From contig CP047921.1 in the NCBI GenBank assembly GCA_010202845.1, forward strand, positions 270,001-302,000: a stretch of DNA of 32,000 nt. Direction: 5' to 3'. The notes under the pieces were generated by a model that did not search any database, had not been told where the DNA came from, and was given only the letters and a program-made list of their open reading frames with translations. The DNA is from Candidatus Saccharibacteria bacterium oral taxon 488. GTDB taxonomy: Bacteria > Patescibacteriota > Saccharimonadia > Saccharimonadales > Saccharimonadaceae. The position numbers were made by a program, and so were the translations under genes. Positions 6,464 through 29,309 of the stretch are shown in pieces (positions within the stretch are counted from its first letter, which is position 1; the number at the start of each line of letters is the position of its first letter).

Positions 6464-7519
6464 CTAGGCTTCGCTGACCAGAATGTAGGTGGCCTTGGCG
6501 GAGCGTTGGAATTGCGGTTTGGCTTGCAAGTTGAGCAGAATGGTGGTTTCTTTGACTTGACGCTTGTCGAGGACGCGCTTCACGATTTCATCGCGGTGCA
6601 GCGGCTCGCCGGCCTCGCGTAGGACGCTGGCGATGATGTCGGCGACGGTACCGCGAGCGTAGCCCCATGATTCGAGGGCATAAATACCGCGGCCGATCAG
6701 AACGAAGCGCTTGTCTTTGATGAGTTCGTTGTGAATGGCTTGGATGGTGACATCTTTGCGTTTGAAATCGCTGTCCTTGATGGCTTTAGCAATGTCCGAG
6801 AAGTGCATTGGCTGGCCGTTGCTGTCGAGAATGACGAAAATCTTGTCACGAATGGTTTTTGGGTTGACGAGCGGCCACTTGATCAGGCCCCACAAACCGC
6901 GGAGGTGAGCTAGTTTCTTGCTGATTGAGGCGAGCGCGGCAATGTTGGATGGGTGCTCGTAGTTGAGCGTTTTGTGTAGTTCCTCGGCGGTGACTGGCTG
7001 GCCGTGCTGTTTGATGGCTTTGATGATTTCTTCGACTTGCTTCTTGATATTCTTCTCGTCGTTTGGTGTGCCGATGATGGCTGAGTGGTAATAGTCATCG
7101 TTCTCGGTGATAATGTTGATTGATGGATTGAGCTCGGCGATAAAGGCGACATGGGATCGTTCGCTATCGGTGACATCTCGGCCGAGGACGTGCTTGGCGA
7201 GATTATGTAGTGGTGCGGCTCGGCCCATTTCTGACAGGTGTGAAGTGACCATCTTTTCAGCAGCCGAGGCACTTGGTATGCCGCCATCAGCTACCAGTAG
7301 ACGGAGGCGAACGAGGATAGCCTTCTCCAGCTGGCGGACACGCTCACGAGTGATCCCGAGCATGTCGCCGATCTGCTCCAGCGTCTCTTTGCTGCCGTAT
7401 AAACCAAAGCGACGGCTAATAATCTCTTTCTCGCGCTCCTGCGGAATTTGCGCCAAAACATCCTCGGCCGCTTGCCGAAGCTGCTTGTCTGGTGCGCTCT
7501 GTTCTTGTGTGTCGCTCAT
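6464..7519 (-). CDS. DNA-binding protein: N-terminal sigma-70 region-4-like HTH plus repeated winged-helix (HARE-HTH/RpoE-delta-like) modules
   Basis: ISRRFGLYGSKETLEQIGDMLGITRERVRQLEKAILVRLR is a classic sigma-70 region 4 HTH. Downstream segments (MHFSDIAKAIKDS...RFVLIGRGIYALESWGY; LHRDEIVKRVLDKRQ...) look like HARE-HTH-type winged helices. No sigma region 2 was seen. It lies 39 nt upstream of the ATPase gene on the same strand. Confidence 0.7.
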   Translation of the reverse strand: MSDTQEQSAPDKQLRQAAEDVLAQIPQEREKEIISRRFGLYGSKETLEQIGDMLGITRERVRQLEKAILVRLRLLVADGGIPSASAAEKMVTSHLSEMGRAAPLHNLAKHVLGRDVTDSERSHVAFIAELNPSINIITENDDYYHSAIIGTPNDEKNIKKQVEEIIKAIKQHGQPVTAEELHKTLNYEHPSNIAALASISKKLAHLRGLWGLIKWPLVNPKTIRDKIFVILDSNGQPMHFSDIAKAIKDSDFKRKDVTIQAIHNELIKDKRFVLIGRGIYALESWGYARGTVADIIASVLREAGEPLHRDEIVKRVLDKRQVKETTILLNLQAKPQFQRSAKATYILVSEA

Positions 7520-11155: not shown

Positions 11156-12028
11156 CTAGTTAAGCGTCCAGTTATTCGCCCCAAGCGGCTTGATCACGCC
11201 GTTGATCTCTAACATGGTTAGTGCCGTGGCGAAGTCGGCTGGGTTGAGACCGGATTGTTGCTGTAGTTGGTCGCCGTCTCTGAGGCCGGTTCGGAGTAAG
11301 TCGATGATAGTGTTTTCGGCTGGGGTTTCACCGAGGGGGGTGACGGCTTGGTCGGTGGCAGATTGAGTGGTTGACGGGGCGATGACATCGAGGATGTCCG
11401 TGGCAGTGGTGGCGACGAGGGCGCCTTGTTTGAGCAGCGCGTTGCAGCCAGCAGACAGCGGGCTGGTGATGTTGCCCGGCACGGCAAAGACGTCGCGGCC
11501 TTGGGATAAGGCGTGAGCGGCGGTGTTCAGTGTGCCGCTGCGCTCGGCGGCCTCGGTGATGATGACGGCGTCAGCTAGGCCGGAGACCAAGCGGTTGCGC
11601 TCCAAGAAACTCCAGCGATTGACGACTTTACCGTCGCCTTTTTGCCACTCAGAGAGGATAGCGCCGCCGTTTTTTATGATATTCATGGCTAATTTGTAAT
11701 TGGTTTGCGGCGAGATGTCGGGCAGTTCATTAGGGATGACGCCGATGACTGTGCCGCCAGCCTCCAGGGCGGCTTTTTGGGCAATGCCGTCGATGCCGAG
11801 CGCCAGGCCGCTAACGATGATGCAGCCGGCTTTTGCCAGGTCGCTCGCCAGCTGCTCGGTCACTTCCCGGCCGTACGCCGAGGGTTTGCGTGAGCCAACG
11901 ATTGCCACGACCGGTGCACCGCTCGTCGGCAATGTTCCCATGAAACACAAGCTTTTCGGTGGATTGGCAATACTTGCCAACCTCTGGGTAAAATTATGCT
12001 CATCTGGACGGATTCTATTGATTTCCAT
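11156..12028 (-). CDS. dprA: DNA-processing protein DprA (Smf)
   Basis: GSRKPSAYGREVTEQLASDLAKAGCIIVSGLALGIDGIAQKAALEAGGTVIGV is the DprA Rossmann-like core. Start moved to the ATG at 12028 (MEINRIRP), which lies 7 nt downstream of TATCAC, with TTGACA 16 nt further upstream. Confidence 0.9.
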   Translation of the reverse strand: MEINRIRPDEHNFTQRLASIANPPKSLCFMGTLPTSGAPVVAIVGSRKPSAYGREVTEQLASDLAKAGCIIVSGLALGIDGIAQKAALEAGGTVIGVIPNELPDISPQTNYKLAMNIIKNGGAILSEWQKGDGKVVNRWSFLERNRLVSGLADAVIITEAAERSGTLNTAAHALSQGRDVFAVPGNITSPLSAGCNALLKQGALVATTATDILDVIAPSTTQSATDQAVTPLGETPAENTIIDLLRTGLRDGDQLQQQSGLNPADFATALTMLEINGVIKPLGANNWTLN

Positions 12029-12048
12029 GACTTTTGTGATAAAAAGTA

Positions 12049-12077
12049 TTGACATGTTGTCAAATGCTTGCTATAAT
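12049..12077 (+). promoter_or_regulatory. Perfect consensus sigma-70 promoter (TTGACA-17 nt-TATAAT) with no ORF downstream
   Basis: TTGACA at 12049-12054, a 17-nt spacer, and TATAAT at 12072-12077. The -35 is part of the palindrome TTGACATGTTGTCAA, which also supplies the -35 of the divergent dprA promoter. Confidence 0.7.
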
Positions 12078-12083
12078 CAGGAG

Positions 12084-12397
12084 CGATTGGTTAGCCGAAG
12101 TGCTAATCAAAAGCACCTTATACCCCCTATTCTAACTAATATGTTAGGTTGCGCGCAATGGCATTAAGTATTCTTACCCTCCACTTTTTGCGATTCAACG
12201 TTACGCGCATACTAACCCCTTTAACTGCCCTTTTTTGAAGGCGACCTCTGTTAAGGTGAGCACTGGATGGTGTTGATATTATAATCAGGCGCGGACTTTT
12301 GGAGTTTTAGTCACGACGCTTCACTGAGACGGGAGCTCGGGTGGGTTGAAGGGTAACAAAGCGCCAGGTGATGCCCACCCTTACCTGGCGCTTTTTT
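12084..12397 (+). ncRNA. Candidate noncoding RNA transcription unit (class unknown), bounded by a promoter and a terminator
   Basis: It runs from the consensus promoter at 12049-12077 to the intrinsic terminator at 12361-12397. No credible plus-strand ORF begins in the interval (the largest is an 8-codon ATG ORF). A second promoter-like copy TATAATCAGGcGCG sits at 12280, which predicts a shorter ~105-nt species. No match to tmRNA, RNase P, SRP or riboswitch signatures that I could recall. Confidence 0.35.
12361..12397 (+). terminator. Intrinsic terminator
   Basis: 9-bp stem GCGCCAGGT / ACCTGGCGC with a 13-nt loop, followed by TTTTTT. Confidence 0.75.
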
Positions 12398-12508
12398 AGT
12401 TGGGTTTTTGATGTGATCTTGCACCGTGTAAATGGAGGTTGGGTGTGAATTGGTGTGGGATGGTTTGCTAGAAAGTGAATTTTTGGGTGGATATGCGTGA
12501 GCATAATA

Positions 12509-12545: not shown

Positions 12546-13529
12546 ATGACGCAGATAATTGAGCACGATACCTTAGTCAAGTTAAGCCAAGAGCGCCCGT
12601 TGGTGTTTCGAGCCCAAGCGGCCGCCGTCTTGGCGCGCGTGCCGCGACGATTTCGACGAGATGCGCGGATGCTGAATCGTAGCAAGCGCACGATGCACGA
12701 TATGCTGACGGCGTGGCGGGACGAATGGTTGCCGAGGCTAGAGACGATCACCTCGGCGCATAATGCGACAACGTTGCAACAAGCCTTGCAGGAGGATTTG
12801 CTGGCCGAGACGTCGTCGCAGCAACGGCTGATCGCCATGATGATACCGGTGCGGCTTGAGGAGGAGCGACTGGCCTTTGCGGGGTCGCAGTTTACGTCAA
12901 AGCGAGAGAAAAAGCCGTATCAGCGAACGCTGGCGTTCGCCCAGCAGCCAATTGAGGTCTGTCGACAGCAGGTTGAAGATTTTATGAGGTACGAACTGTA
13001 CCGGGCGGTGCTCGGTGAGGTCGGTGTGACCGTGGTGGACAAGCAGGCGCGGCCTTTGGTGCGGTGCTGGCAGCGGCTACGGGCCGGTCGTCAGGTTAAG
13101 AAACTGCGACGTGAGGTAACGAGGCGCTTGGCGGCGATTGAGCGAGAAATGACGGCGATTGAGCAGGAGCGCGGCGGCTTGGCGGCCCGGCTGTTCGGGC
13201 TGAATATTGATTATGTGACGGTGTTGGCAGCGCGACAGGAGTACGAAAAGGCGCTGGGCCGGCTGAGTAAAAAAGCGGCCGAGAGCCCGGCCAAGCGGCT
13301 GGCACTATACGAGAAAAAGACCGAAGCGATTCGCGAGGAATACCTCGACACAGTACCGGGCGTGGCGAATTTGTCAGAAGCGCAGCGGGCGGTCAAGGAA
13401 ATTGATTCGGTGCTGCTCGCGATTTTTGACCTAGACGCGACCGCGCGCAACGAACTGATGAGCGCGTTTAAGCGCTACCGGACGCTGACGCGTGAGCGCG
13501 ACATGCTACGGGCAAAGCTTGAGGTGTAG
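12546..13529 (+). CDS. Hypothetical Arg-rich, predominantly helical/coiled-coil protein
   Basis: 327-aa ORF with consistent coding look. It is GC-richer than its neighbours (about 62 percent by hand count on one 60-nt line). No motif recognised. Confidence 0.65.
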   Translation: MTQIIEHDTLVKLSQERPLVFRAQAAAVLARVPRRFRRDARMLNRSKRTMHDMLTAWRDEWLPRLETITSAHNATTLQQALQEDLLAETSSQQRLIAMMIPVRLEEERLAFAGSQFTSKREKKPYQRTLAFAQQPIEVCRQQVEDFMRYELYRAVLGEVGVTVVDKQARPLVRCWQRLRAGRQVKKLRREVTRRLAAIEREMTAIEQERGGLAARLFGLNIDYVTVLAARQEYEKALGRLSKKAAESPAKRLALYEKKTEAIREEYLDTVPGVANLSEAQRAVKEIDSVLLAIFDLDATARNELMSAFKRYRTLTRERDMLRAKLEV

Positions 13530-13593: not shown

Positions 13594-14043
13594 TTAGGCT
13601 TGGCTCGTCGTCTTGGTTGAGCCAGGCTGCGTATCACCAGCTGCCATGCAGGTCTGGCACACTCCTTCGAGTTCAAAGTGGTGGCGCTCGACACGGAAGT
13701 GATGGCGCTGGCCGATCAAGGCGATGAGCCGTTCTAGCTCTGGTGTCTCCAGCGGTTCGGCGTTATGACAGCGTGTGCAGTAGAGGTGGTGATGATGTTT
13801 GATGAATGGCTCGGCGAGCTCATAACGGACTTTCCAGCCGATGTGGATGGTGTTAATGACGTGAAGCTCGTGAAAGGTTTCGAGAATGCGATAGATGCTG
13901 GTGCGGTTAGTGTTCGGGCAACGCTTGGCGATTTCGGCGATGGTCAGTGGTACGTCGATAGATTCGAGTGCCGTAAAGACTTCGCAGCGTGATTTGGTCA
14001 GGCGAAGGTCGGCTTGGCGAAAGATGTCGCGTAAGGTATCCAT
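13594..14043 (-). CDS. Fur-family metalloregulator (Zur-like)
   Basis: Winged-helix segment TKSRCEVFTALESIDVPLTIAEIAKRC...RTSIYRILETF. Metal sites HHHHLYCTRC and CQTC. Start moved to the ATG at 14043 (MDTLRDIF), which lies 6 nt downstream of TACAAT. The longer ORF would overlap the divergent gene. Confidence 0.85.
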   Translation of the reverse strand: MDTLRDIFRQADLRLTKSRCEVFTALESIDVPLTIAEIAKRCPNTNRTSIYRILETFHELHVINTIHIGWKVRYELAEPFIKHHHHLYCTRCHNAEPLETPELERLIALIGQRHHFRVERHHFELEGVCQTCMAAGDTQPGSTKTTSQA

Positions 14044-14051
14044 GTCGCAAT

Positions 14052-14088
14052 TGTAGCACTTATTGCGACAAAATTGCAATAAGCTACA
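14052..14088. promoter_or_regulatory. 37-bp imperfect palindrome (candidate operator) overlapping both divergent promoters
   Basis: TGTAGCacTTATTGCGACAAAATTGCAATAAGCTACA. The outer arms TGTAGC/GCTACA and the inner ATTGCGACA...TTGCAAT are symmetric. It covers the TTGCAA -35 elements of both the fur promoter (minus strand) and the 14111 promoter (plus strand). Confidence 0.55.
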
Positions 14089-14110
14089 CAATACGCCATA
14101 CTGATGAGCT

Positions 14111-14881
14111 ATGAAAGAATGTATTGAGCGAGTGCTGAGCTTGCCGCAGCTCACACCTTCTGAGGAAGTTAATGCGGCGTTTACCGAATTAGTTGATGCG
14201 GTGGTGGCGCACGGTAAAGAGCCACTGCTGCGTGACGAGGATATTCGCCGTCAGGTGCAGCAGCGCTGCGCGGTAGCCGAAGGAGAGTTGGAACGACACT
14301 GGTCGGGGCGCATCACAGAGGCGGATAACCCGTGGGCAGAGTTAGAAGCGTTTCCGTATCATGAGAATTATAAAGAGTTGACGCGGCGTGAGATTGGGCT
14401 GCTGGGACGGACTGGGCTGCAGCTATGTGGTTGTTCGTCGGAAGTGGCGATGATTGGTAGTGGGCCGTTGCCGCTGACGGGATGGTGGCTACATCGGCTA
14501 ACGGGAGCGCGGATTACGCATGTTGATGCGTCGGACGAGGCAATTGAGTTATCGCGCGGCCTTGCCACGGCGCTTGATTGGCCGGGTAAATTTGTGACTG
14601 GTCTGGGTCAGTCGGTGGCGCTGGATGAGGGGCGATATGATGTGATATATGTAGCGGGACTGGCTGGCGAAACGCTGGCGGAAAAGCAAGCGATCGTTGA
14701 TCATGTACGACCAGCACTTACACCAGACGGGCGACTGATCGCGCGCGGGGCGTACGGGGCGCGCACCCTGCTCTATCCAGGATTTGATGCTCACGCTTTT
14801 GAGGGTGTGCGGCTGATGGAGGAATACCATCCGACAGATGGGGTGATTAATTCGGTCTTTGTGTACAAGCAGGCCGCTTAG
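14111..14881 (+). CDS. Nicotianamine-synthase-like (NAS/CntL-like) SAM-dependent aminobutyryl transferase
   Basis: N-terminal LSLPQLTPSEEVNAAFTELVDAV, then VAMIGSGPLPLTGWWL and DVIYVAGLAG. These match the NAS-family patterns (LsPs.evN.lF..LV; GSGPLPlT; DvvflAALvG) as I recall them. Confidence 0.75.
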   Translation: MKECIERVLSLPQLTPSEEVNAAFTELVDAVVAHGKEPLLRDEDIRRQVQQRCAVAEGELERHWSGRITEADNPWAELEAFPYHENYKELTRREIGLLGRTGLQLCGCSSEVAMIGSGPLPLTGWWLHRLTGARITHVDASDEAIELSRGLATALDWPGKFVTGLGQSVALDEGRYDVIYVAGLAGETLAEKQAIVDHVRPALTPDGRLIARGAYGARTLLYPGFDAHAFEGVRLMEEYHPTDGVINSVFVYKQAA

Positions 14882-14902: not shown

Positions 14903-14921
14903 ATTGAGACATTGTCGCAAT
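14903..14921. repeat. Copy of the 19-bp palindrome ATTGCGACA-N-TGTCGCAAT
   Basis: ATTGaGACATTGTCGCAAT, in the 52-nt gap between convergent stops (14881 plus, 14934 minus). Confidence 0.7.
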
Positions 14922-14933
14922 AATGATACATAG

Positions 14934-15707
14934 CTAGACGCCGAGGAATTCGTATGGATTGGCTGGTTCGGTGGTTGGGGTGATGGTGGGGTTGGTGAGG
15001 ACGTAGACAGCTCGGCCGCCGGATAGTTCACGTTTAACCTGGCCGCTTAGGCGTAGCCATTGGTTGTTGCGGTAACGCTCGGCGTCTGGGGATTTAACGA
15101 GAATGCTGATCGGGGTGCTGTCGACAGCGCAGCAGCTGATAACGAAGCGTGATAGTTCGAAGTAGCGGTTGTCGTAAAAGCCACTCGGGTCGCGCGCCAC
15201 GAAGCCAGTGACGTCGATGGTTACGCCGTCAAAAAAGCTGTCATTCGGGCAGTCATCAAACGCGCTACGCCAGCGGTTCATGGAAACGGGTTTGCCGTCA
15301 AGCGGCTCTGGTTTGTCGCAGCGGCCGGTCGTGCTGGTTGGCCCGGACGTGGCGCGGTTGGCAGCGCTGGACGAGGACAGTGGACGCGGCGGCAGGACGA
15401 TGGCCAGAGCGAGGATGCCGGCGGTGATGATTGAGAGTATGGGGATGGTGCGTCGCGGCTTTTTTGGATGCTTGGTGGGTGCCGGGCGGGCGGAGGCTCG
15501 TCGCTTCCCTGCTAGGTTATGGCGCAGCTGTAGAACAATATCGATAAGGAGTAACATGCCACCAGCCACGGTCGCCACGACGGCGAGCAAATGGTAGCGC
15601 GGATGAATGTAAAAGCCGAGCTGGCCGCGGACGGCGATGAGGATGATGTAGCTACAGGCAAGTAGCCCGCCGCCAGCGCGCAGTAGTGGGCCGAGTTTAG
15701 CGCGCAT
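14934..15707 (-). CDS. TIGR03943/DUF1980-like two-TM protein (putative permease accessory subunit)
   Basis: Two N-terminal TM helices, a basic/Pro-rich linker, and a C-terminal domain with the ISCCAVDS motif. It overlaps the upstream permease gene by 11 nt (coupled). Family call from memory of this conserved gene pair. Confidence 0.65.
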   Translation of the reverse strand: MRAKLGPLLRAGGGLLACSYIILIAVRGQLGFYIHPRYHLLAVVATVAGGMLLLIDIVLQLRHNLAGKRRASARPAPTKHPKKPRRTIPILSIITAGILALAIVLPPRPLSSSSAANRATSGPTSTTGRCDKPEPLDGKPVSMNRWRSAFDDCPNDSFFDGVTIDVTGFVARDPSGFYDNRYFELSRFVISCCAVDSTPISILVKSPDAERYRNNQWLRLSGQVKRELSGGRAVYVLTNPTITPTTEPANPYEFLGV

Positions 15708-16740
15708 AGAGATTGACTCCGATCCCTGCCGCGAGCGACAGACTGAAAATAATGAGCATAACCAGCAGGATAAATCGCGGACGAAAGGTGCTTCGCATGA
15801 GGAGAATCAGTTTGATGTCGATCATCGGGCCAGTCAGCAGAAAAGCGAGGACGGAGCCATTGGTGAAGATACGGGCGTAAGCCAGCGCAAAAAAGGCATC
15901 GACGCTGGAGCAGATAGAGACGACGAAGCCGAGGCCGATCATGGCGATGACCGACAGGATGGTGTCGCCGCCGACGGCGTTGATGATGGAGCGCGGAACG
16001 AAGACTTGGGTGGCGGCAGCGATCATGGCGCCGAGGACCAGCATGGTGGTGAGCTGCCAGAATTCGTTGCGGGAATCAGCGAGGATGTGGCGAAAGGTCG
16101 TTGGATGACGGTCGGTGCAGGAGGCAGCAAATGACGGCTGGAGGACGTGTTTGGGGTGAATAAAGCTGACGATCAGGGCGGTCAGCTGGACGATTAGAAA
16201 GCCAAAGCCGATGCGCCACCAGACCATGCGCGGTTCAAAACTAAAGGCGGTCATAGTGGCGATGATGGTGATCGGATTGAGGATCGGCGCGGCTAAGAGA
16301 AAGCTGATGACGTCGGCGGGCTTGAGGCCGTGTGCTAGGAGGCTGCGGGCGACTGGCACATTGCCGCACTCGCAGACTGGCAGCGCGATACCGACGAGCG
16401 AGAGGAGAATGCGGCGGATGAATGTGTGTTTGGGTAGGATTTTAAGCAGTCGGTCTGGCGGCAGGAAGCGGCGAATGAGAGCAGAAACGATGATGCCGAT
16501 GATGAGAAACGGCGTGGCCTCAACGATGACGCTGCAGGTTAGCGTCAGGAAATCTTGTGCCAGCGGTGCTAGCGTCTCGGCCCACGTGTGCGGCGGATGG
16601 GCGATCAGCCAGAGGTCAATTTGTAAACCATACTGCATCACAACGATGCCAAACAAGCCGACGATAGTCCATCGGATCGCGTCGCTGTGGTTTTTGAACC
16701 AGGCGCCAGCGCGCTGATATATTGTCTGTAGTGACGGCAT
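15697..16740 (-). CDS. Polytopic permease (DUF318/ArsP-like; partner of the TIGR03943 protein)
   Basis: Multi-TM protein with LPVCECGNVPVARSLL and a second-half repeat (ICSSVDAFFALAY). TATAAT lies 7 nt upstream of the ATG (leaderless-type). Confidence 0.75.
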   Translation of the reverse strand: MPSLQTIYQRAGAWFKNHSDAIRWTIVGLFGIVVMQYGLQIDLWLIAHPPHTWAETLAPLAQDFLTLTCSVIVEATPFLIIGIIVSALIRRFLPPDRLLKILPKHTFIRRILLSLVGIALPVCECGNVPVARSLLAHGLKPADVISFLLAAPILNPITIIATMTAFSFEPRMVWWRIGFGFLIVQLTALIVSFIHPKHVLQPSFAASCTDRHPTTFRHILADSRNEFWQLTTMLVLGAMIAAATQVFVPRSIINAVGGDTILSVIAMIGLGFVVSICSSVDAFFALAYARIFTNGSVLAFLLTGPMIDIKLILLMRSTFRPRFILLVMLIIFSLSLAAGIGVNLYAR

Positions 16741-16789
16741 AGTTTCTATTATACTACTCCCCGCCTAGCATGCTATACTAAAACTCAGT

Positions 16790-17911
16790 ATGAAACATTG
16801 GCTCCACTCGCATCACCCATTTCGGATTTTTTGGTTTTCGGCGTTGTTGACGCTGGCGTTGGGCGGGTTGATTTTCGGTCATTTCGGCGCGAGCGGCTTG
16901 TGGTTGTTTGCAATTTTGGTGGTGCTGGAAGTGACGTTTAGCTTTGATAACGCGGTGATTAACAGCAAGGTGCTGGCTGGCATGAGCCAGGTTTGGCAAA
17001 AGGTGTTTTTGACAGTTGGGATTTTCGTGGCGGTGTTCGTGGTGCGGTTCGTGCTGCCGATTATCATCGTGATGGTGGCGAGCGGCCATGGCTTCATGGA
17101 AGTGGTTGATTTGGCGCTGAATAGGCCGGCGGAATACGGTCATATTTTGCATGAAGCCTCGCCGATGATCGATGCCTTTGGCGGCGCGTTTCTGATTATG
17201 ATTGGCCTCAGTTATTTCATTGATTATAACAAGCGCGTGCATTGGATGCGGCATGTCGAGCCGTGGCTGGCCAAGGCTGGGCGGTTCGAGAATTTCAAGG
17301 TGTGTTTGATGCTGGGCGTGGCGGCGGTGCTGTATTTTACGGTCGAGCCGCCGCATCGAGCGCTGGTACTGATCTCGTCGGTGTTGGGGATTATACTGCA
17401 TATCGGGCTGGAATTGTTCGGCTCATTCTTCCATGAGGATGATGCTAAATCAGTCAAGGTCAAGGTTGGTTGGGCGGCGTTCGCTAGCCTGCTCTATCTG
17501 GAAGTGTTGGATGCTAGTTTTAGCTTTGACGGCGTCATCGGCGCGTTTGCTATCACCAGCAGCGTGCTGCTGATTGTGGCGGGCCTGGGTGCTGGAGCGA
17601 TTTGGGTGCGGTCGCTGACGGTGTATTTGCTGCGGACGGGCATGCTCAGTAAGTATAAATATCTGGAAAATGGCGCGCACTGGGCGATCATGGCGCTGGG
17701 TATGATGATGATTGCTAAGTTGTTTCATCTGGAGCTGCCGGAATGGGCGACGGGAGGCTTGGGGCTGCTGTTTGTGAGCTTGGCGGTTGGCAGCAGTATG
17801 CTGGAGGCGCGAGCGATTAATTTGCAAGAAGCAGCTGCGGCGAAATTGCATAGCGCTGAGCGGCGGCTGAAACACGGCGCGGCGAAAATTGTGCCGCGAA
17901 AGCGACGGTAA
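16790..17911 (+). CDS. DUF475 / TerC-superfamily integral membrane protein
   Basis: Duplicated signature LEVTFSFDNAVINSKVL and LEVLDASFSFDGVIGAFAIT within a polytopic membrane protein. TATACT lies 10 nt upstream of the ATG. Confidence 0.75.
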   Translation: MKHWLHSHHPFRIFWFSALLTLALGGLIFGHFGASGLWLFAILVVLEVTFSFDNAVINSKVLAGMSQVWQKVFLTVGIFVAVFVVRFVLPIIIVMVASGHGFMEVVDLALNRPAEYGHILHEASPMIDAFGGAFLIMIGLSYFIDYNKRVHWMRHVEPWLAKAGRFENFKVCLMLGVAAVLYFTVEPPHRALVLISSVLGIILHIGLELFGSFFHEDDAKSVKVKVGWAAFASLLYLEVLDASFSFDGVIGAFAITSSVLLIVAGLGAGAIWVRSLTVYLLRTGMLSKYKYLENGAHWAIMALGMMMIAKLFHLELPEWATGGLGLLFVSLAVGSSMLEARAINLQEAAAAKLHSAERRLKHGAAKIVPRKRR

Positions 17912-17951: not shown

Positions 17952-17970
17952 ATTGCGACATTGTTGCAAT
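17952..17970. repeat. Copy of the 19-bp palindrome ATTGCGACA-N-TGTCGCAAT
   Basis: ATTGCGACATTGTtGCAAT, in the convergent gap between stops 17911 (+) and 18021 (-). The flanks cTATTGCGACA....TGCAATAAGC closely match the operator copy at 14060-14083. Confidence 0.7.
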
Positions 17971-18020: not shown

Positions 18021-18626
18021 TTAGAGCTTGACGCTTATGGCTGAAATGTGATCGGATAAAAAGTCATGAATCATTGTTTGCGCCGTTGGGATGGTCCAAT
18101 TTTTCAAAATAGTTAATTCATCGCTATTAAAATTCATCATAACAAAACGGTCGGTTGAGACTTGCCGCCGCAGTAGATTGTCTGTACCGATACGAATATG
18201 CCAAAAGTCAGAACCAATGTGAGCATGAAGCGATTTTAAGCCGTTGCTGCCAGCGTCGCGCCCGCCTTTACGGACGCGGATTTTACCAAAATCAAGGTCG
18301 GTGTCATCGTGAATAATTAGTAAATCATCCAGTGTCAGTTTATAAAAATCCATGATCGCCCGCGCGGAAATACCGACGTTATTGTAGTACGTGGTTGGTT
18401 TGACAAGGAGGACTTTTTCTCGTGGAATAGTAACAGGTAGTTTTGTGCTAGCGGCTGAATCGACCGTAAAACTGTTTAATTCGGCAATATCCGCAAAGAA
18501 TTTGGGCTTGTTGCTAAAATGTGCACTCTGTCCTGCCGCCAACTGGTTAACCACCAAAAAGCCAGCATTATGCCGCGTGTGAACGTACTTTTCGCCAGGA
18601 TTGCCAAGGGCCAGAATTACTTTCAT
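18021..18626 (-). CDS. pth: Peptidyl-tRNA hydrolase
   Basis: MKVILALGNPGEKYVHTRHNAGFLVV and later VKPTTYYNNVGIS and IIHDDTDLDFGKIRVRKGG are canonical Pth motifs. Confidence 0.9.
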   Translation of the reverse strand: MKVILALGNPGEKYVHTRHNAGFLVVNQLAAGQSAHFSNKPKFFADIAELNSFTVDSAASTKLPVTIPREKVLLVKPTTYYNNVGISARAIMDFYKLTLDDLLIIHDDTDLDFGKIRVRKGGRDAGSNGLKSLHAHIGSDFWHIRIGTDNLLRRQVSTDRFVMMNFNSDELTILKNWTIPTAQTMIHDFLSDHISAISVKL

Positions 18627-18670
18627 AGCCTTAGTATAGCACCTTGGCTGTGATGACGTATAATAGATGT
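18627..18670. promoter_or_regulatory. 44-bp divergent promoter region with two leaderless-type -10 boxes
   Basis: On the minus strand, TATACT (18638-18633) lies 6 nt before the pth ATG. On the plus strand, TATAAT (18659-18664) lies 6 nt before the ATG at 18671. Neither side has a Shine-Dalgarno. Confidence 0.6.
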
Positions 18671-19639
18671 ATGGCGAAACGCGATGATGATTTGGAATTT
18701 AGTGTTAATGCGGCGTTTGACGAGGCGCGGGCGGTTGTTGACAAAGTGCCGCTATATTTGGTGAACGGCTCGCTGGGTGCTGGCAAGACCAGCGTGTTGG
18801 AATTCTTATTGCAACAAAGTGACTATAAGGGCGCGCGGGTGATTGAAAATGAATATGCCAATGAAAATGTCGACGGCTATCGGCTGGAGGGATTGGCGGA
18901 GATGGTGACGACGCTGGCTGGCGACTGCGTCTGCTGCTCGTCGAAACACGCGCTAACGCGGATGCTGCTGGACTTTTGCCGGAATTCGCCGGCGCCAGTG
19001 TTTATCGAGGCGACGGGCGTGGCGCGAACGATGAACTTGGTCGAGAAATTGATTAATGCACAAATCTTCAATAAGTATGAGTTGATGCAGAGTTTTTATG
19101 TGATCGATGCGCACGAGATTTTGCGCGGGATTGAGCCAGCGCACGAAGTTGAACTGCAAGCAGCAGACGTGATTTTGGTGACCAAGGAAGATTTATTGAA
19201 CGATAGCGAGCTGGCTGAATACGAAGCAAAACGCCGCGCCCTACCCTACGCCAAGGTGTTCAGTGCGCCGCACGGTCGGTTTGAACTCAGTAAATTAACC
19301 ACGCCGTCGGGACTGCTTGCGTTTTTTGATACGTATGATGGCGAGCTGGCGGTGCCGGATAATCCGACGTATGCAGTACTGGATGTTTCGGGCATGAATA
19401 TCGCGGCGTCGGCGCTAGAAAACATGTGGCTGGAGTTGTTCAGGGCGTATGGCCTACGACGGATGAAGGGGTGCTTTATTAGTGACAACGGCGCGCACCA
19501 GCATGTGGAGGCGACCGAGCAGCAAATTCAGATAACTCATGCCAAGCCTGAGGAGGCAGCAAAAATCGTGCTAATCGGCGAACGGGCGGATGAGATTACC
19601 CGTGAAGCTTTGGCGGCGCAACTAGTGATGTTTGAATAA
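18671..19639 (+). CDS. COG0523-family G3E GTPase (CobW/ZigA/YeiR-like metallochaperone)
   Basis: Walker A NGSLGAGKTSVL and the CxCC metal motif GDCVCCSS. Start moved from the TTG at 18644 to the ATG at 18671 because TATAAT sits 6 nt upstream. Confidence 0.85.
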   Translation: MAKRDDDLEFSVNAAFDEARAVVDKVPLYLVNGSLGAGKTSVLEFLLQQSDYKGARVIENEYANENVDGYRLEGLAEMVTTLAGDCVCCSSKHALTRMLLDFCRNSPAPVFIEATGVARTMNLVEKLINAQIFNKYELMQSFYVIDAHEILRGIEPAHEVELQAADVILVTKEDLLNDSELAEYEAKRRALPYAKVFSAPHGRFELSKLTTPSGLLAFFDTYDGELAVPDNPTYAVLDVSGMNIAASALENMWLELFRAYGLRRMKGCFISDNGAHQHVEATEQQIQITHAKPEEAAKIVLIGERADEITREALAAQLVMFE

Positions 19640-19792
19640 ATTGTTCGCTTTCGTCGTTTCCGACTCATCAGCATAGACATGCATCTATGGAGCGAACTGA
19701 CAAGCAGAAGGTGGAGGAAAGTTAACTTTGCCCGCCAGTTCGTAAATGGTGTGTATTTATCAATCACCCCCCTTGGTGTGATTACGAATGGT

Positions 19793-20068
19793 TTAGACAG
19801 GGTATGGACCTATTGGGATATTTCTGTCTGTTCCGTATGCTTTACGGTATGCCTCCTCAATCCACGCTGGGTCAGAGTCGTGGTGGACTCTTATGGTGTA
19901 CCCGTTGAACTTGAAGGTGACGAGCACCTTCTCCTTTACTGCTGCGGTCCAGCCATTGGACCGCTCCAGCCGCTCAGCCAACTGGATGGCCATCCATGCC
20001 GCATCAAGAACAAGCGTTCTTGATTTGACGATGAGTTCAACTGCTACGATACAGTAGTCGTCTGTCAT
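19793..20068 (-). CDS. Hypothetical small protein; shares a short domain with the 20535-21563 product
   Basis: The ATG at 20068 (MTDDYCIV) is preceded by GGAGGAAG. The segment RVHHDSDPAWIEEAYRKAYG resembles PVYENSDPEKLEAAWARVMRG in the neighbouring protein. Confidence 0.55.
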   Translation of the reverse strand: MTDDYCIVAVELIVKSRTLVLDAAWMAIQLAERLERSNGWTAAVKEKVLVTFKFNGYTIRVHHDSDPAWIEEAYRKAYGTDRNIPIGPYPV

Positions 20069-20450
20069 AATGTTCTTCCTCCCCACCCGAGCGGATGCTC
20101 ATGTGAAAAACACTGGTCGACACTCGGATGGGTCGACTCGAGATGGGGTGTTTTGGTGCTTCTTATGATACACCACGACATCCCACCTCAAATCGAAACT
20201 TTCTCTGCTTGTCAAACTACACTTTCGGACAAGGATGTACTCAACTCGTCAACAAAAGCTGATATATATATATCACTAATAGAACAAAATGTCAATGGAT
20301 TTTGTCAAAAATGTGGTGTAATATTTTTTCTCACCCCTGTTATGATCATAGATAACTTTTTATAGAAAATAGTAGCCGGTGCTTTCTGATAACAGTAACT
20401 TGGCGCAGCATGATAAGAACGGGTCGGAATGTTGGTATTTCAAGAACATC

Positions 20451-20486
20451 AAAACGCCGACAGGTACATAAGCGCGTCGGCGTTTT
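20451..20486. terminator. Intrinsic terminator hairpin (usable on both strands) downstream of the 20535 stop
   Basis: 11-bp stem AAAACGCCGAC / GTCGGCGTTTT with a 14-nt loop. T-runs follow on both strands. Confidence 0.65.
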
Positions 20487-20534
20487 GTTAGGATTTTTAT
20501 AGCCTAGAAACACTTGATATCAAGCGTACAATTG

Positions 20535-21676: not shown

Positions 21677-23305
21677 TCACTTCTTGTCAAGAACAACCAA
21701 GTGCTCACTATGCGGCGTGCGCGGGAAAAAGTTGTAGCCGCGGTGATGGACGATGCGGTAGTGCTGCTGGAGCAAGGCGACATCGCGAGCTTGGGTGACG
21801 GGGTTGCAGCTGAGATAGAGGATGCGCGGCGGTAGCTGTTGCAACAATGTCGCAATAACGTCAGGATGTAAGCCAGCGCGCGGCGGATCAACGATGACGA
21901 TTTCCTTGCCTGTAATGTGGTCGAGGGCTTGTTCGCTGGGGGCGAGGACAGCGCGAGCGTCGGTGCGGTCAAGTTCGGTGATGTTGCGCTGCATTTCGCG
22001 GACAGCGTCGGTGTTGATTTCCACCAGCGTGACGTTGCCGCCGCCAATGGTCAGACCAATAGTGCCGACGCCAGCATAGAGGTCGAGGGCTGGCTCGCCC
22101 GTCTCGCAAACATCTTTTTCTTCAGGCCGGCGCGCCGCTAACTGATCTAGCTGGCGCTCTTGGCGCGCCTTTGCCGGAAAGGCAAAGCCTTCAGAAAAAG
22201 AGTTTGACGAGTCGTGCTGCTTGCTTTCTCTATGTTGCCCAGATTTTTTCTGAGATATTACTCGCTGTTGACTATCAATGTCGCCATGTGCCGCCAACTG
22301 AGCCCGGCGCTCTTGGCGCGCCTTATTGTACGGCATCCACTCCTTCATATCGCGCAGCGCCTGCTCGTAAACCGGGATGTTGACTTGGAAAAAGCCTTCG
22401 CAGGCGTAGCGGAATGGTATGCCAAGGATAGCGTCAGTCAAGGTGGTGTTACCGAAAAGCGCCAAGCGCTCGGTGATGCGGCTGGCTGGCGAGCGCGGGT
22501 CGGAATAGATAATTTCCCCGCCCTGAGCTGGTAGCTTGGCGGCTTCAGTAGCGGTAATTATTTCGGGCAAGCGATCTTTAACATACAACTGCCATACGCA
22601 ACTTCCCGATTGATCGCAGCGGACGAGCAAGGTCTTGAGCTGGCGAGCCGCGACGCGTTTATGGCGCAGCAAATTGCGGATCGCCCGCGCCAGGTTATTG
22701 ATTGCAGGGTGCGCCAAGCTCGTGCCATCGATGACAATCTTGCCTTTGCTGCCGCGGCGAAAAAATGCTAAATCAAGCGTATCGCCAGATGATTCTTCAC
22801 GGTCGCTATCCGCGTCTATATCTTGGTTATTATCAGAAAATAATTCGGGACCCGAGACAAGCCCAGATTTTTTCTGAGATACCGCTCGGGATACCACCGA
22901 TTCGCTGTACCAGCTAAATTCAACTTTGTTGCGATAACCATATGCGACATTGTCGCAATAAATGTCAATCGCCGCCGGTAATGTAACATTGTGCAGTGTA
23001 AAGGCGTCGTCGATCAGTTGCCTTTTGTATATCTGCTCTATCTCGAGCGGCATAATTTGCCAGGGGCTGGTCGACAGGTAACTATCTGGATCGCGCGGCT
23101 GGATGCGGTCGGGGCTTGGCAAAATTACCTCCTCGACAATCGCTTCGACGAAGTGCGATTTCTTTTTAGTAATGCGAACAGTGACCGTCTCGCTGGGCAG
23201 TCCGCCCCATACAAAACATTTGCGGCCGTCGGTCAGCGTCCCTAGTGCTTGCCCGCCGCCAACGACCTTCTCCAGTGTCAGCGTCTCAAAACTCTGTCGT
23301 TTCAT
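21677..23305 (-). CDS. RlmD/RumA/TrmA-family (uracil-5) RNA methyltransferase with an N-terminal TRAM domain and two internal insertions
   Basis: TRAM-like N-terminus (LTLEKVVGGGQALGTLTDGRKCFVWGGLPSETVTVRITKKK). Family motifs GYRNKVEFSW, GFFQVN, LDLYAGVGTIGL, IVDPPRAGL and YLSCNPVTQARD. The ATG at 23305 lies 8 nt downstream of TATAAT (23319-23314). Confidence 0.85.
   Translation of the reverse strand: MKRQSFETLTLEKVVGGGQALGTLTDGRKCFVWGGLPSETVTVRITKKKSHFVEAIVEEVILPSPDRIQPRDPDSYLSTSPWQIMPLEIEQIYKRQLIDDAFTLHNVTLPAAIDIYCDNVAYGYRNKVEFSWYSESVVSRAVSQKKSGLVSGPELFSDNNQDIDADSDREESSGDTLDLAFFRRGSKGKIVIDGTSLAHPAINNLARAIRNLLRHKRVAARQLKTLLVRCDQSGSCVWQLYVKDRLPEIITATEAAKLPAQGGEIIYSDPRSPASRITERLALFGNTTLTDAILGIPFRYACEGFFQVNIPVYEQALRDMKEWMPYNKARQERRAQLAAHGDIDSQQRVISQKKSGQHRESKQHDSSNSFSEGFAFPAKARQERQLDQLAARRPEEKDVCETGEPALDLYAGVGTIGLTIGGGNVTLVEINTDAVREMQRNITELDRTDARAVLAPSEQALDHITGKEIVIVDPPRAGLHPDVIATLLQQLPPRILYLSCNPVTQARDVALLQQHYRIVHHRGYNFFPRTPHSEHLVVLDKK
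21838..21856. repeat. Intragenic copy of the 19-bp palindrome
   Basis: gTTGCaACAATGTCGCAAT, inside the methyltransferase CDS (encodes DVIATLLQQ). Confidence 0.6.
22153..22324. repeat. 153-bp in-frame unit bounded by perfect 19-nt direct repeats inside the methyltransferase CDS
   Basis: GGCGCTCTTGGCGCGCCTT occurs at 22153-22171 and 22306-22324, spaced 153 nt (51 codons) apart. At the protein level this gives the duplicated KARQER. Confidence 0.8.
22191..22257 (+). repeat. Copy B (variant) of the palindromic repeat
   Basis: Terminal inverted repeat TCAGAAAAA (22191-22199) / TTTTTCTGA (22245-22253). The 21-mer gcccagattttttctgagata (22237-22257) is identical to 22861-22881. Confidence 0.75.
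22833..22888 (+). repeat. Copy A of the 55-nt palindromic repeat, in frame inside the methyltransferase CDS
   Basis: tcagaaaataattcgggacccgagacaagcccagattttttctgagataccgctcg. It has the inverted repeat TCAGAAAA / TTTTCTGA and an inner CGGGaCCCG palindrome. It matches the reverse complement of 9136-9190 at 48 of 55 positions. Confidence 0.85.
22941..22959. repeat. Intragenic copy of the 19-bp palindrome
   Basis: taTGCGACATTGTCGCAAT, with a perfect 15-bp palindromic core TGCGACATTGTCGCA. It encodes IYCDNVAY, immediately before the conserved GYRNK motif. Confidence 0.65.
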
Positions 23306-23324
23306 CAAGAGTTATTATAACAGA

Positions 23325-27207: not shown

Positions 27208-27285
27208 CTATGCCCGTAGCTTCTTATCCTTCAGCTTCAACACCACATCGGCCTGCTTAGCCAGCTGTTTGCTGTGGGTGACGAC
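27208..27285 (-). pseudogene. Orphan duplicate of the last 25 codons plus stop of the ABC-transporter ATPase gene
   Basis: It encodes VVTHSKQLAKQADVVLKLKDKKLRA*, versus VVTHSKQLAKQADVVLKLKDKKLKA* at 29310-29387. The upstream 62 nt (27224-27285 vs 29326-29387) differ at 3 positions, all synonymous. There is no upstream coding continuation. Confidence 0.75.
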
Positions 27286-27302
27286 TCTATTACTTATAAT
27301 TA

Positions 27303-29204
27303 TCAATGCGTTGAATCTCCATCTTTATCTGCGATTAAATCTATGATTTTACGAATCTCCCTTGCTCTGTCGTCATCGCTGTTTAGAAAATGATCCATCT
27401 CATTTTCACAAAAATCAATTACATGATCAATTCTTTTTTCCTTTCCAGTATACTGTTCGATGGCTCCTTTCTTTAGATAAAACTCATAAGATGGATATTT
27501 CGATTCTATTTTCTCATCTAGGTCAGGGTGCTCGTTTCTATATGCAATTATCTGCTCGTCTGTTTTTACTGGCGGTAGGCTCTTCTTTTGACTTCTGTAA
27601 AAGCCTCTATAGAAATCCGTTTTTGTAGTATCTAAATCCTTAATAAAATAGACTTTTAGTCCAAAAGATTCAAAAAATGATTTAAATGAGAACATGCTCC
27701 TCTCGCCATTCACACCGTATACAGTAATACATTGACTGGCTTCTTGATGCAGTATCTTTATAGCAGCCCTAAAGAAATACTCATCATCTTGACCTTCAAC
27801 CAGCAATACTCTATCTAGAAATAGCACTCGAGCTGCCCAAGTATTGTTTAGGATTTCTATCAACTTTTTTTGATCTTCCCTAATATCGGGAGTACGCACC
27901 ACGGAATTACGCTCTTCATTTAGCGAGAATCGTTTTATGTATCTTATCGTGTTATCGTTTATGAAACCTTCGGAATGCGTTACAAGAATGCACTGAATTT
28001 CTTGTTCTTTTGCTAAATCTTCAAGAATTTTTAGATATTTAGATTGGAACTGATAGTGTAAATGAATCTCTGGCTCGTCAATAATAATAAGACCACCTTT
28101 TACGTCATCTCGACCATACGCTTCAAAGATTAAGTGTATAATCGATTTTTGTCCAGCGCTAAGACTGTTTATGTCACCCAGCTCTCGGTCATTTTTTATA
28201 TCACGGAATTTAAACTCGTACGACCATCTTCGTATACTTACTGGTTTTACAGATAGCTGTAAATTTAATATTCTAAGCTTTTCGTTTATCTTTTTGATTA
28301 TTGGAGAATTATTGATTGTAGCTGTGGCATCATTAATATTTTTACCCTCTTTTACTCGCTTAAAGTGATCTTCACCGAGCTTTAATTTTATGAAATCAAA
28401 GATAGCAGGCATGCCTGAGGAGTGCTCGTTAATACTATGGGGGATTAGCCTATTTTTTACATTCTGAAATACATCACCCGAAGGACCATCGCCATTATAT
28501 AAGTGTATCTGAGAGTTATCATTGCCGTAGTCACGGAAAGCTGATAGCATAGAAAAAGTATTTTCAAGAGGTGCTATGTGGTCGGTGTTATCTTCATTGT
28601 ATACTGTTATAGCCTCATTAATTGCGTGGTAATATTCTAAATAGAATTTTATATAATCCGGCACTGGATCACGATAGTGGCTCTTATACGTATTATCTTC
28701 GTCGTATTTGGCTTGTTTAAATGTAATATCTATTTCTATATCCATATCACTATCTAGCGCACAAAACTCAGGCATTGGTATAATTGAGTAATTTTCAAGA
28801 GTCTTTTTTATGTGGCTATAGTTATCTACAATATGATCTATATTAGCCCTATCAATATTATCAAGCTTAATTGATACTCTTACTCTCTGCTGTGCTTCTT
28901 CTGAACTCCAATTAGGTTGGAGCCTAAGACCTAATGTTCTATTGGAGTAATTATCATCAATTTGAAGCATGTTCTTTCTATCTGTATAATATGAGCGATG
29001 ACTGCTGTAGCTATTTGTTATGCGCTTAAATAAAGCTCTCGTAAAGACAAGATTCATAGCCTCTAAAACCGTTGACTTGCCAGATCCGTTTTCTCCAATA
29101 ATGATATTAAGATCTGGGTCAAATTCAATCTTAAAGGCGTTGTTTATGTCCTCCTCATATTTAAAGCTAAGGATATTTGATAATTGCAAATAATTAACTC
29201 TCAT
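27303..29204 (-). CDS. Fused ABC/SMC-like ATPase + Toprim nuclease-like protein (OLD family / fused PARIS AriA-AriB-like)
   Basis: N-terminal LQLSNILSFKY...IIIGENGSGKSTVLEAM (Walker A). LSAGQKS signature, LIIIDEPEIHLH (Walker B/D-loop) and ILVTHS (H-loop). The C-terminal VLLVEGQDDEYFF and FIKDLD fit the Toprim Glu and DxD motifs. TATAAT lies 10 nt upstream of the ATG. Confidence 0.75.
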   Translation of the reverse strand: MRVNYLQLSNILSFKYEEDINNAFKIEFDPDLNIIIGENGSGKSTVLEAMNLVFTRALFKRITNSYSSHRSYYTDRKNMLQIDDNYSNRTLGLRLQPNWSSEEAQQRVRVSIKLDNIDRANIDHIVDNYSHIKKTLENYSIIPMPEFCALDSDMDIEIDITFKQAKYDEDNTYKSHYRDPVPDYIKFYLEYYHAINEAITVYNEDNTDHIAPLENTFSMLSAFRDYGNDNSQIHLYNGDGPSGDVFQNVKNRLIPHSINEHSSGMPAIFDFIKLKLGEDHFKRVKEGKNINDATATINNSPIIKKINEKLRILNLQLSVKPVSIRRWSYEFKFRDIKNDRELGDINSLSAGQKSIIHLIFEAYGRDDVKGGLIIIDEPEIHLHYQFQSKYLKILEDLAKEQEIQCILVTHSEGFINDNTIRYIKRFSLNEERNSVVRTPDIREDQKKLIEILNNTWAARVLFLDRVLLVEGQDDEYFFRAAIKILHQEASQCITVYGVNGERSMFSFKSFFESFGLKVYFIKDLDTTKTDFYRGFYRSQKKSLPPVKTDEQIIAYRNEHPDLDEKIESKYPSYEFYLKKGAIEQYTGKEKRIDHVIDFCENEMDHFLNSDDDRAREIRKIIDLIADKDGDSTH

Positions 29205-29252
29205 GATGCTAATTATTATACACTTATCAGCTTTATTTATGGGTTTGGAACT

Positions 29253-29280
29253 ATAAAAATATAGCTCTTTCGAGCTATAT
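29253..29280 (-). terminator. Intrinsic terminator carried by the cassette, directly after the current ABC ATPase stop
   Basis: The minus strand reads ATATAGCTC-GAAA-GAGCTATAT (perfect 9-bp stem, GAAA tetraloop) followed by TTTTT. Confidence 0.7.
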
Positions 29281-29309
29281 TTAAAACGTGTATTTTTTGG
29301 AGACTATTT

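Follow-up and report, generated by a model that had tools for sequence, protein, structure and literature searches.

Palindromic sites in the window

We analyzed a 32,000-nt stretch of the genome of Candidatus Saccharibacteria bacterium oral taxon 488 (contig CP047921.1, positions 270,001 to 302,000; here called the window), in which a 19-bp palindrome recurs in and around a cluster of metal-related genes. The cluster includes a gene for a Fur-family regulator (fur below, also labeled zur) and, divergent from it, a gene for a nicotianamine-synthase-like (NAS) protein; the coordinates of all features are collected in Table 1. A symmetric weight matrix was built from the sites and scanned over the window, which revealed six copies of ATTGCRACAWTGTYGCAAT between 12.7 and 23 kb with scores of 19.6 to 30.5 bits, compared with ~0.05 copies expected from shuffles. 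The scores were bimodal, i.e., the weakest strong copy reached 19.6 bits and the next best match 12.7 bits, with no others ≥13 bits. Copies are numbered 1 to 5 as in an earlier note on this DNA, plus copy 6. All five copies listed in that note were found where it had placed them, but its count was incomplete, as the scan added the sixth strong copy at 12762-12780. The Pfam gene map bore out the placement of copies 2 and 3 in gaps between the stop codons of convergent genes and of copies 4 and 5 within a methyltransferase gene, and nothing comparable was detected in 1-12.7 kb or 23-32 kb, in agreement with the reported lack of full copies at 0-12 and 23-32 kb.

None of the window copies is a perfect 19-mer: copies 1 to 5 have 3, 1, 1, 2 and 2 mismatches to ATTGCGACANTGTCGCAAT, respectively, copy 1 being the weakest of the five by this measure, with a deviating centre. 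In dinucleotide shuffles (n = 100), the mean number of matches was 0.04, and five copies were reached in 0 of 100. Flanks common to all copies gave the extended consensus cTTATTGCRACAWTGTYGCAATAAg, which corresponds to two TTGCRA hexamers 5 bp apart within a 9-1-9 dyad (TTATTGCRA-CAWTG-TYGCAATAA). Equivalently, ATTGCRACA-N-TGTYGCAAT can be written as TTGCRA-N5-TYGCAA, from which all six copies deviate by 0-1 mismatch. The 9-mer half-site alone was not enriched (14 observed versus 10.3 expected with up to 1 mismatch). Chance and codon bias were ruled out as explanations by the shuffles and by the scarcity of sites in 678 kb of related DNA (see below).

Several smaller matches were also considered. 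The 37-bp palindrome described around copy 1 is present but imperfect (one bulged base), and its outer arms are not conserved in relatives, in which only ~25 bp are kept. TTGACATGTTGTCAA at 12049, previously regarded as a possibly related palindrome, proved unrelated: it serves as the -35 in a perfect sigma-70 promoter that belongs to a conserved non-coding RNA, while a half-site proposed at about position 1048 scored <6 bits and was therefore treated as chance. The 12.7-bit match adjoining copy 5 is probably a by-product of the family-wide protein motif YRNKVEF, which encodes it.

A site at the promoter of the Fur-family gene

The regulator contains CxxC...CxxC plus an HHHH motif. Its top phmmer matches in the PDB included C. 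jejuni Fur (3e-13), Nur (3EYY; 3.8e-12, not the best match) and FurB/Zur (2O03; 1e-10), while no NCBIfam subfamily model reached its cut-off: the Zur model scored 21 bits versus 167, and the Fur and PerR models scored higher but far below theirs. Zn, Ni and Mn are the candidate metals.

Based on predicted promoters, copy 1 is the only one of the six window copies that overlaps core promoter elements. It had been described as overlapping both -35 elements, and this is what we found, the -35 of fur by promoter scan and that of NAS by eye only. Since the predicted -35 of fur (TTGCAA) lies at 14079-14074, this hexamer is itself one arm of the copy 1 palindrome. A third, exact half-site lies 10 bp from copy 1, and lineage L202 has a similar half-site (ATAGCGACA) at the same place. 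Four genomes, among them oral taxon 488 strain 106.1.1 (CP128407.1), share 91-92% DNA identity with the window over 11.5-32 kb, and the 14030-14083 block is identical in four of four close relatives (copy 1 = 100% conserved).

Next, we compared fur orthologues from the window, L202, the L203/L128 group, TM7x, L204 and L205 (51-100% protein identity). In all six lineages, a site of the TTATTGCRA-N5-TYGCAATAA type with TTA/TAA flanks lies directly upstream of fur, its TTGCAA hexamer serving as the predicted -35, followed after a 16-18 bp spacer by a -10 element and the ATG; the geometry of the window's fur promoter was also read by eye in L202, TM7x, L204 and L205. The upstream neighbor of fur varies, i.e., NAS in divergent orientation, DUF1980 in co-directional orientation (TM7x and L205) or pth in co-directional orientation (L204). 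Because the same site is found upstream of fur whatever the neighboring gene, it appears to travel with fur, which is a signature of autoregulation.

Leaderless mRNAs are apparent for fur, ArsP, cobW and serS, in which a -10 element is followed by ATG ~6-7 nt on (read by eye; window positions 14041-14055, 16741-16789 and 18659-18673, and about 7492 in L092 for serS).

Conservation of the copies outside promoters

Copy 2 occurs in relatives as TGTCGTAAT or TGTTGTAAT variants, and L202 has a site about 35 nt past its NAS stop. The 24 distinct sequences compared at copy 3 agree at every position of the 23-nt block ATTGCGACATTGTTGCAATAAG and at one flanking base, whereas the spacer around it shows substitutions and indels; these sequences span several species (pth 70-94% and ArsP 61-99% identical). 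A further site lies inside serS at codons 27-32 (IATLLQ or IATMLQ; +78..+96), where it is kept in two alleles with 45% protein identity and forms the best-conserved block in a region of ~70% DNA identity. The two serS alleles (L092/L134 versus L133/L179) are located within hpf/secA surroundings that are 93-99% identical, which suggests that the gene was replaced by a distant homologue.

The methyltransferase gene was compared among 39 same-clade genomes, all of them Candidatus Saccharibacteria (TM7). Site 5 reads TAT TGC GAC AAT GTY GCA TAT and site 4 reads ATT GCR ACA TTG TTR CAA. The encoded peptides YCDNVAY and IATLLQ are specific to the motif-bearing clade, and outgroups have YTDNVEY and IA(R/K)LLE, respectively, indicating that amino acids changed towards the motif. 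When synonymous diversity was ranked among 325 codon runs (lowest first), site 5 was found at rank 17 (mean codon diversity 0.10), with variation nearly confined to the motif's Y position. In the window, L202 and L205, the 327-aa gene near fur spells its site as NAT(T/K)LQ at codons ~73-79, whereas in L204 the usual position is decayed, and a new NATKLQ-encoded site is present ~120 codons downstream. Such turnover within a gene points to selection on DNA rather than on protein. Overall, IATLLQ, NATKLQ or YCDNVAY codons spell the intragenic sites of the rlmD-like, serS, dus and 327-aa genes, and the non-promoter copies appear, from these comparisons, to be under selection. The earlier suggestion that intragenic copies are maintained against coding constraint is thus supported in a stronger form, as the protein sequence itself has changed to spell the site.

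Two observations concern the host genes. The 327-335-aa protein family is found near fur in most lineages (window, L202, L203, L204 and L205) and is absent in TM7x. The methyltransferase gene shares 85-88% DNA identity with genomes whose 10-kb flanks lack detectable similarity to the window (L001-L007 and L043), and it contains a variable low-complexity insert (~22093-22233) at which its identity to relatives switches.

At another locus, downstream of an nrnA-like gene for a DHH phosphoesterase, the palindrome lies 5-8 nt past the stop codon, and 4-5 different right-hand contexts start exactly at its edge, i.e., synteny breaks there. In one of these contexts, a small His/Cys-rich open reading frame (ORF) has a leaderless promoter that uses the TTGCAA arm as its -35, so this copy may be a promoter operator that outlived rearrangements. 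In TM7 contigs L144, L148, L152 and L188, a RAGATH-10-like sequence lies beside the nrnA-associated palindrome; the window has a RAGATH-10 RNA of its own (RF03147, 55.9 bits) at 20074-20152 (-), in a spacer (19640-20534) that varies among close relatives.

We also looked for promoters at the copies between convergent genes. A promoter for a small RNA or antisense transcript at copy 3 was rejected, as no convincing -10 element was present; for an antisense promoter running from copy 2 into DUF1980, the candidate TTGAGA-17-TGaTACATA is conserved but unproven.

Copy number in related genomes

In related DNA, 678 kb from the 39 clade genomes, covering DNA outside the methyltransferase gene and the metal cluster, contained a single site ≥17 bits, inside the dus gene of L028. 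A scan of metagenome contigs for ATTGCRACANTGTYGCAAT gave at least 120 stretches. The matches listed include 55 on Saccharibacteria contigs by our own count, which fall into three classes only, i.e., TerC/pth (27), inside serS (16) and the nrnA-like 3' end (12). Two contigs (119 and 137 kb) carry both the serS site and the metal cluster, 65-70 kb apart and with no other exact match in between. Relatives hold further intragenic sites in DUF1980, a second cobW paralogue, ArsP and a 179-aa gene. The low copy number excludes an uptake signal or a repeat resembling repetitive extragenic palindromic (REP) elements, and it fits a small regulon.

Other features of the window

The genes around the palindromes are listed in Table 1; an exact-sequence look-up of the NAS-like protein gave no record. 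Between dprA and the 327-aa and fur genes lies a conserved, structured non-coding region of ~320 nt (12049-12398, +), which has a perfect TTGACA-17-TATAAT promoter (12049-12077) and a terminator hairpin (~12360-12396) and is more conserved than its neighbor genes across TM7x, L202, L203, L204 and L015. RNAalifold predicted 92 pairs, 14 of them with compensatory changes. The region had no Rfam match even at E≤1 and was not called as a transfer-messenger RNA by ARAGORN, and it may be an undescribed Saccharibacteria RNA.

Genes for a TrwB/TraG-like coupling-protein homologue (3746-6424, -) and a Sigma70_r4 + HARE-HTH protein (6464-7519, -) adjoin topA and dprA, an arrangement kept in TM7x and in the other examined lineages; the window also contains pilin-like genes in addition to dprA. 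An OLD-family nuclease gene (AAA_15 + OLD TOPRIM; 27303-29204, -) is located within a 37% GC island that is missing in relatives L010, L013 and L015 (alignment gap 27285-29320) and is probably an acquired defense gene. GC skew is strongly positive (0.1-0.26) up to ~19 kb, then approximately zero and, after ~27 kb, negative, while genes stay mostly on the minus strand.

Table 1. Palindromic sites, predicted promoters and genes in the window, with the sites upstream of fur orthologues in other lineages
Feature	Position or lineage	Strand	Sequence, score or evidence	Context
Copy 1	14062-14080		ATTGCGACAAAATTGCAAT, 23.1 bits	conserved core 14059-14083, cTTATTGC..GCAATAAg
Copy 2	14903-14921		ATTGAGACATTGTCGCAAT, 28.2 bits	21 nt past NAS stop, 12 nt past DUF1980 stop
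Copy 3	17952-17970		ATTGCGACATTGTTGCAAT, 30.5 bits (best in window)	40 nt past TerC stop, 50 nt past pth stop
Copy 4	21838-21856		27.8 bits	methyltransferase codons 485-491, ATT GCG ACA TTG TTG CAA = IATLLQ, gene strand
Copy 5	22941-22959		25.5 bits	methyltransferase codons 117-123, TAT TGC GAC AAT GTC GCA TAT = YCDNVAY
Copy 6	12762-12780		AATGCGACAACGTTGCAAC, 19.6 bits (24.9 in close relatives)	327-aa gene codons 73-79, AAT GCG ACA ACG TTG CAA = NATTLQ
Weak match	22917-22935		12.7 bits	adjoins copy 5; encoded by YRNKVEF motif
Extra exact half-site	14043-14051		TGTCGCAAT	between fur (zur) -10 and ATG
Predicted fur (zur) promoter	14050-14079	-	promoter scan	-35 TTGCAA inside copy 1, 18-bp spacer, -10 TACAAT 14055-14050, ATG 14043, leaderless
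Predicted NAS promoter	14064-14093	+	by eye, not in promoter-scan output	-35 TTGCGA 14064-14069 inside copy 1, 18-bp spacer, -10 CACAAT 14088-14093
Fur-upstream site	L202		ATTGCAACTTTGTCGCAAT	fur orthologue 70% identity
Fur-upstream site	L203/L128 group		ATTGCAAATTTGTTGCAAT	fur orthologue ~60% identity; exact TTGCAA-N5-TTGCAA
Fur-upstream site	TM7x		ATTGCATATTTGTTGCAAT	fur orthologue 57% identity
Fur-upstream site	L204		ATTGCGACAAAGTTGCAAT	fur orthologue 53% identity
Fur-upstream site	L205		ATTGCAATAAAGTTGCATT	fur orthologue 51% identity
dprA	11156-12055	-	Pfam/NCBIfam map	
327-aa gene	12546-13529	+	no Pfam or NCBIfam match	
Fur-family regulator (FUR)	13594-14043	-	Pfam PF01475, E=1.3e-15	149 aa
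Nicotianamine-synthase-like (NAS)	14111-14881	+	Pfam PF03059, E=2.5e-47	copies 1 and 2 on either side
DUF1980/TIGR03943	14934-15707	-	Pfam/NCBIfam map	
ArsP_1 permease	15697-16740	-	Pfam/NCBIfam map	
TerC/DUF475	16790-17911	+	Pfam/NCBIfam map	
pth	18021-18626	-	Pfam/NCBIfam map	
COG0523/CobW GTPase	about 18671-19639	+	Pfam/NCBIfam map	
RlmD-like methyltransferase	21677-23308	-	Pfam/NCBIfam map	

Operators of a Fur-family repressor as the favored explanation

NAS-like and COG0523 genes belong to families commonly associated with zinc. Nur of Streptomyces coelicolor is a nickel-responsive Fur homologue, and its footprinted box, tTGCaa-N5-ttGCAA, is a 6-5-6 motif (PMC2691836). The motif described here shares its hexamers (TTGCRA/TYGCAA) and 5-bp spacing, as well as the overlap with promoters at metal-related genes and a binder presumed to belong to the Fur family, and the fur-promoter copies have an unconserved centre, as in the 6-5-6 model. 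It differs in that the dyad extends to 9-1-9 with TTA/TAA flanks, that the non-promoter copies conserve the centre CAWTG and that the regulator is not demonstrably a Nur orthologue; no nik, sod or sodF genes were seen among the window genes. The presence of the site on the fur promoter in six lineages, together with the Nur-box architecture, makes an operator of the adjacent Fur-family regulator its most likely identity. Judging from sequence comparisons, we assign a probability of approximately 65% to the explanation that the palindromes are operators of the metal-sensing repressor encoded beside copy 1. Of the earlier proposal that they are operators of an adjacent Zur-like regulator, the Fur-family operator with extra sites is retained, while the Zur label is not, given subfamily models below cut-off and COG0523 and permease promoters without the site.

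Mechanistically, copy 1 would supply the -35 hexamer and fill the spacer of the fur promoter and would also cover the -35 of the divergent promoter of the NAS-like (metallophore synthase) gene, with the third half-site at the fur start. Since copy 1 covers the -35 elements of both promoters, a metal-loaded dimer, or two dimers, bound there would block RNA polymerase, and the outcome would be autoregulation and metal-dependent repression of NAS. Our best inference is that the five non-promoter copies are bound by the same protein. These could stall elongation as roadblocks, prevent read-through or, as auxiliary operators, increase the local occupancy of the repressor; a roadblock or auxiliary operator role is our best guess. 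The setting would be a very compact genome, whose leaderless promoters would leave little room for operators. The plus strand carries NAS, TerC and cobW, with copies 2 and 3 in between, and, speculatively, relief of binding could let transcription run towards cobW. It is also possible, although we propose it tentatively, that one Fur-family sensor in these ultra-small episymbiont genomes is wired to core genes of RNA metabolism and translation (serS, the rlmD-like rRNA methyltransferase gene, dus, pth and nrnA) via operators in coding sequence or just past stop codons, which would act as metal-dependent roadblocks or read-through gates (e.g., from TerC into COG0523). Such a regulon would be conserved and consist mainly of non-promoter operators, which would have arisen by IATLLQ, NATKLQ and YCDNVAY replacements.

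A number of findings weigh against an operator role. The classic Zur targets COG0523/cobW (at 18671), the ArsP-DUF1980 permease operon and TerC have no promoter site; the pth-cobW and ArsP-TerC divergent promoter regions contained no site ≥12 bits, and only the NAS-like gene and fur itself have one at the promoter. The housekeeping genes serS, rlmD-like, dus, nrnA and pth would be odd members of a metal regulon. TM7x is without the whole TerC/pth spacer and its site, and the total invariance of copy 3, R/Y positions included, is stricter than most operators need. Synonymous conservation, which is evident at site 5, is only average at site 4 (rank 91 of 325), where variation occurs mostly at the R position and in one Leu codon. 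Finally, the centre is AT-rich and variable in the fur-promoter copies but kept as CAWTG in the non-promoter copies. This difference may reflect two site classes or a hairpin (stem conserved, loop free), and the fur-promoter and other copies might differ in affinity or even in function.

Alternative explanations

If the palindromes acted as hairpins in RNA (or single-strand DNA), i.e., as 3'-end stabilizers, terminators or processing/recognition elements with the TTATTGCRA/TYGCAATAA arms as stem and the centre as loop, the centre would be variable just where a loop is expected, and it would be understandable that several copies lie 4-50 nt past the stops of NAS, TerC, pth, DUF1980 and nrnA (DUF1980 or pth in TM7x and L204). 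Read in the TerC sense, copy 3 has a predicted folding energy of -8.9 kcal/mol, is followed by a U-run and was flagged by a terminator scan. However, copy 2 is weak (-3.9 kcal/mol at the NAS 3' end and -3.3 kcal/mol) and no better than shuffles, compared with -21.2 for the bona fide terminator at 20450-20495; no compensatory double substitutions were found, the sequence being conserved and not the pairing; and transcription is predicted to start downstream of the fur-promoter copy on both sides. The mixed R/Y sites are mostly G-U-compatible on the sense strand, but this bias follows from the reading frame, in which T14 is fixed as the second position of a Leu codon, and the orientation test is therefore uninformative. 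As hairpins would also leave the fur linkage and the Nur-box match unexplained, we regard them as unlikely. Intrinsic termination as such was rejected because only TerC-sense copy 3 is terminator-like, the other hairpins being too weak. A chromosome-organization site (parS, matS or Noc-like) with a structural protein as its binder, as raised in the earlier note, would be in line with sites that are low-copy, strongly conserved, position-conserved and tolerated in genes, at least 8 of them within ~75 kb (metal cluster, methyltransferase and, on two contigs, serS ~65-70 kb off). Low copy number and intragenic tolerance alone do not decide against this idea. Nevertheless, no gene of the ParB, Noc or MatP type is present in the window; the palindrome has an odd length and a central base, unlike parS (a 16-bp even palindrome); all lineages examined have the site linked to the fur promoter; and the cluster is found at 229-250 kb in the 705 kb of TM7x and at 284-305 kb in the 856 kb of CP128407, i.e., about one-third of the way round two complete genomes and near neither origin nor terminus if numbering starts at the origin. 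The idea is thus unsupported and, in our estimate, quite improbable.

A role in recombination or as a mobile-element signal, whether as a hairpin of the type associated with REPs and REP-associated tyrosine transposases (RAYTs) or as a cassette junction, is suggested by the 4-5 contexts that begin at the nrnA-linked palindrome, by the comparison with TM7x, in which NAS looks inserted between two copies, and by the variable RAGATH-10 region that adjoins some sites. Against this, no transposase, recombinase or RAYT gene was found nearby in the window, the other gene junctions in the metal cluster have no site, and copy number is very low. Since identity shows no sharp break at the serS site and the methyltransferase breakpoints (22093-22233) lie away from the sites, we consider such a role very unlikely. 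Three related candidates were also discarded: a REP/RAYT-type repeat (low-copy, half of the copies intragenic and no transposase in the window), a cassette boundary for the metal cluster (site positions inconsistent between lineages) and a phage or mobile origin (one match in a viral collection). DNA uptake sequences such as the Neisseria DUS and Haemophilus USS occur about once per kb, in coding frames or in inverted pairs after genes. An uptake signal for natural transformation, also put forward in the earlier note, would accord with the dprA and pilin-like genes and with the motif's placement in coding frames and as inverted pairs after genes, which is possible for uptake signals. The motif described here differs in amounting to about ten per genome; with one site per 678 kb of related DNA outside known loci, none in 23 kb of the window and an unenriched half-site (14 versus 10.3), the probability of this explanation is practically negligible.

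Relation to known regulatory sites

The Bacillus subtilis Zur box is TCGTAAT-N-ATTACGA, a dyad of 9-1-9 / 7-1-7 form. It differs in sequence from TTGCRACA-N-TGTYGCAA, but both are Fur-family dyads with a central base, and both include intragenic sites of unclear role. In vivo, B. subtilis Zur bound 35 intragenic regions, 16 of them with a Zur box, and its regulon includes sites >200 bp inside genes; these sites were cis-repressive, a roadblock was proposed, and their role was left unresolved in that study (PMC4324032). The B. subtilis boxes were found by binding, whereas the evidence presented here is evolutionary, i.e., conservation across 39 genomes, site-creating amino-acid changes and turnover. 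Auxiliary and roadblock operators include lac O2 in lacZ and O3 at the lacI 3' end, gal OI, and the roadblocks of CcpA and CodY. As in the lac/gal type, a main promoter operator is accompanied by extras in coding sequence or at a neighbor's 3' end, there hundreds of bp off. In contrast, the distances here are 0.8-3.9 kb, with some sites ~70 kb from the regulator gene, and looping or roadblocking is our conjecture. With parS, the palindromes have in common that they are low-copy, conserved and tolerant of intragenic positions; they differ in sequence and symmetry, in having no ParB gene nearby, in not being origin-proximal and in their link to the fur promoter.

Significance

No transcription-factor regulon described for Saccharibacteria or for other bacteria of the candidate phyla radiation came to our notice, and a full-text literature search that combined Saccharibacteria with the Fur family and zinc gave no match. 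The palindrome provides a concrete candidate operator for one of the few Saccharibacteria regulators, beside a metallophore-synthase-like gene in an oral episymbiont. The element would be of a known kind, i.e., a Fur-family operator; what is unusual is how clear the evolutionary signal appears to be, at the level of sequence, for intragenic and 3'-end operators. This bears on a question raised by chromatin immunoprecipitation studies (e.g., of B. subtilis Zur), namely whether intragenic binding sites are functional or noise. Several of the intragenic sites described here are shared by dozens of species-level genomes, owe their origin to amino-acid changes and show turnover inside a gene, which argues for function.

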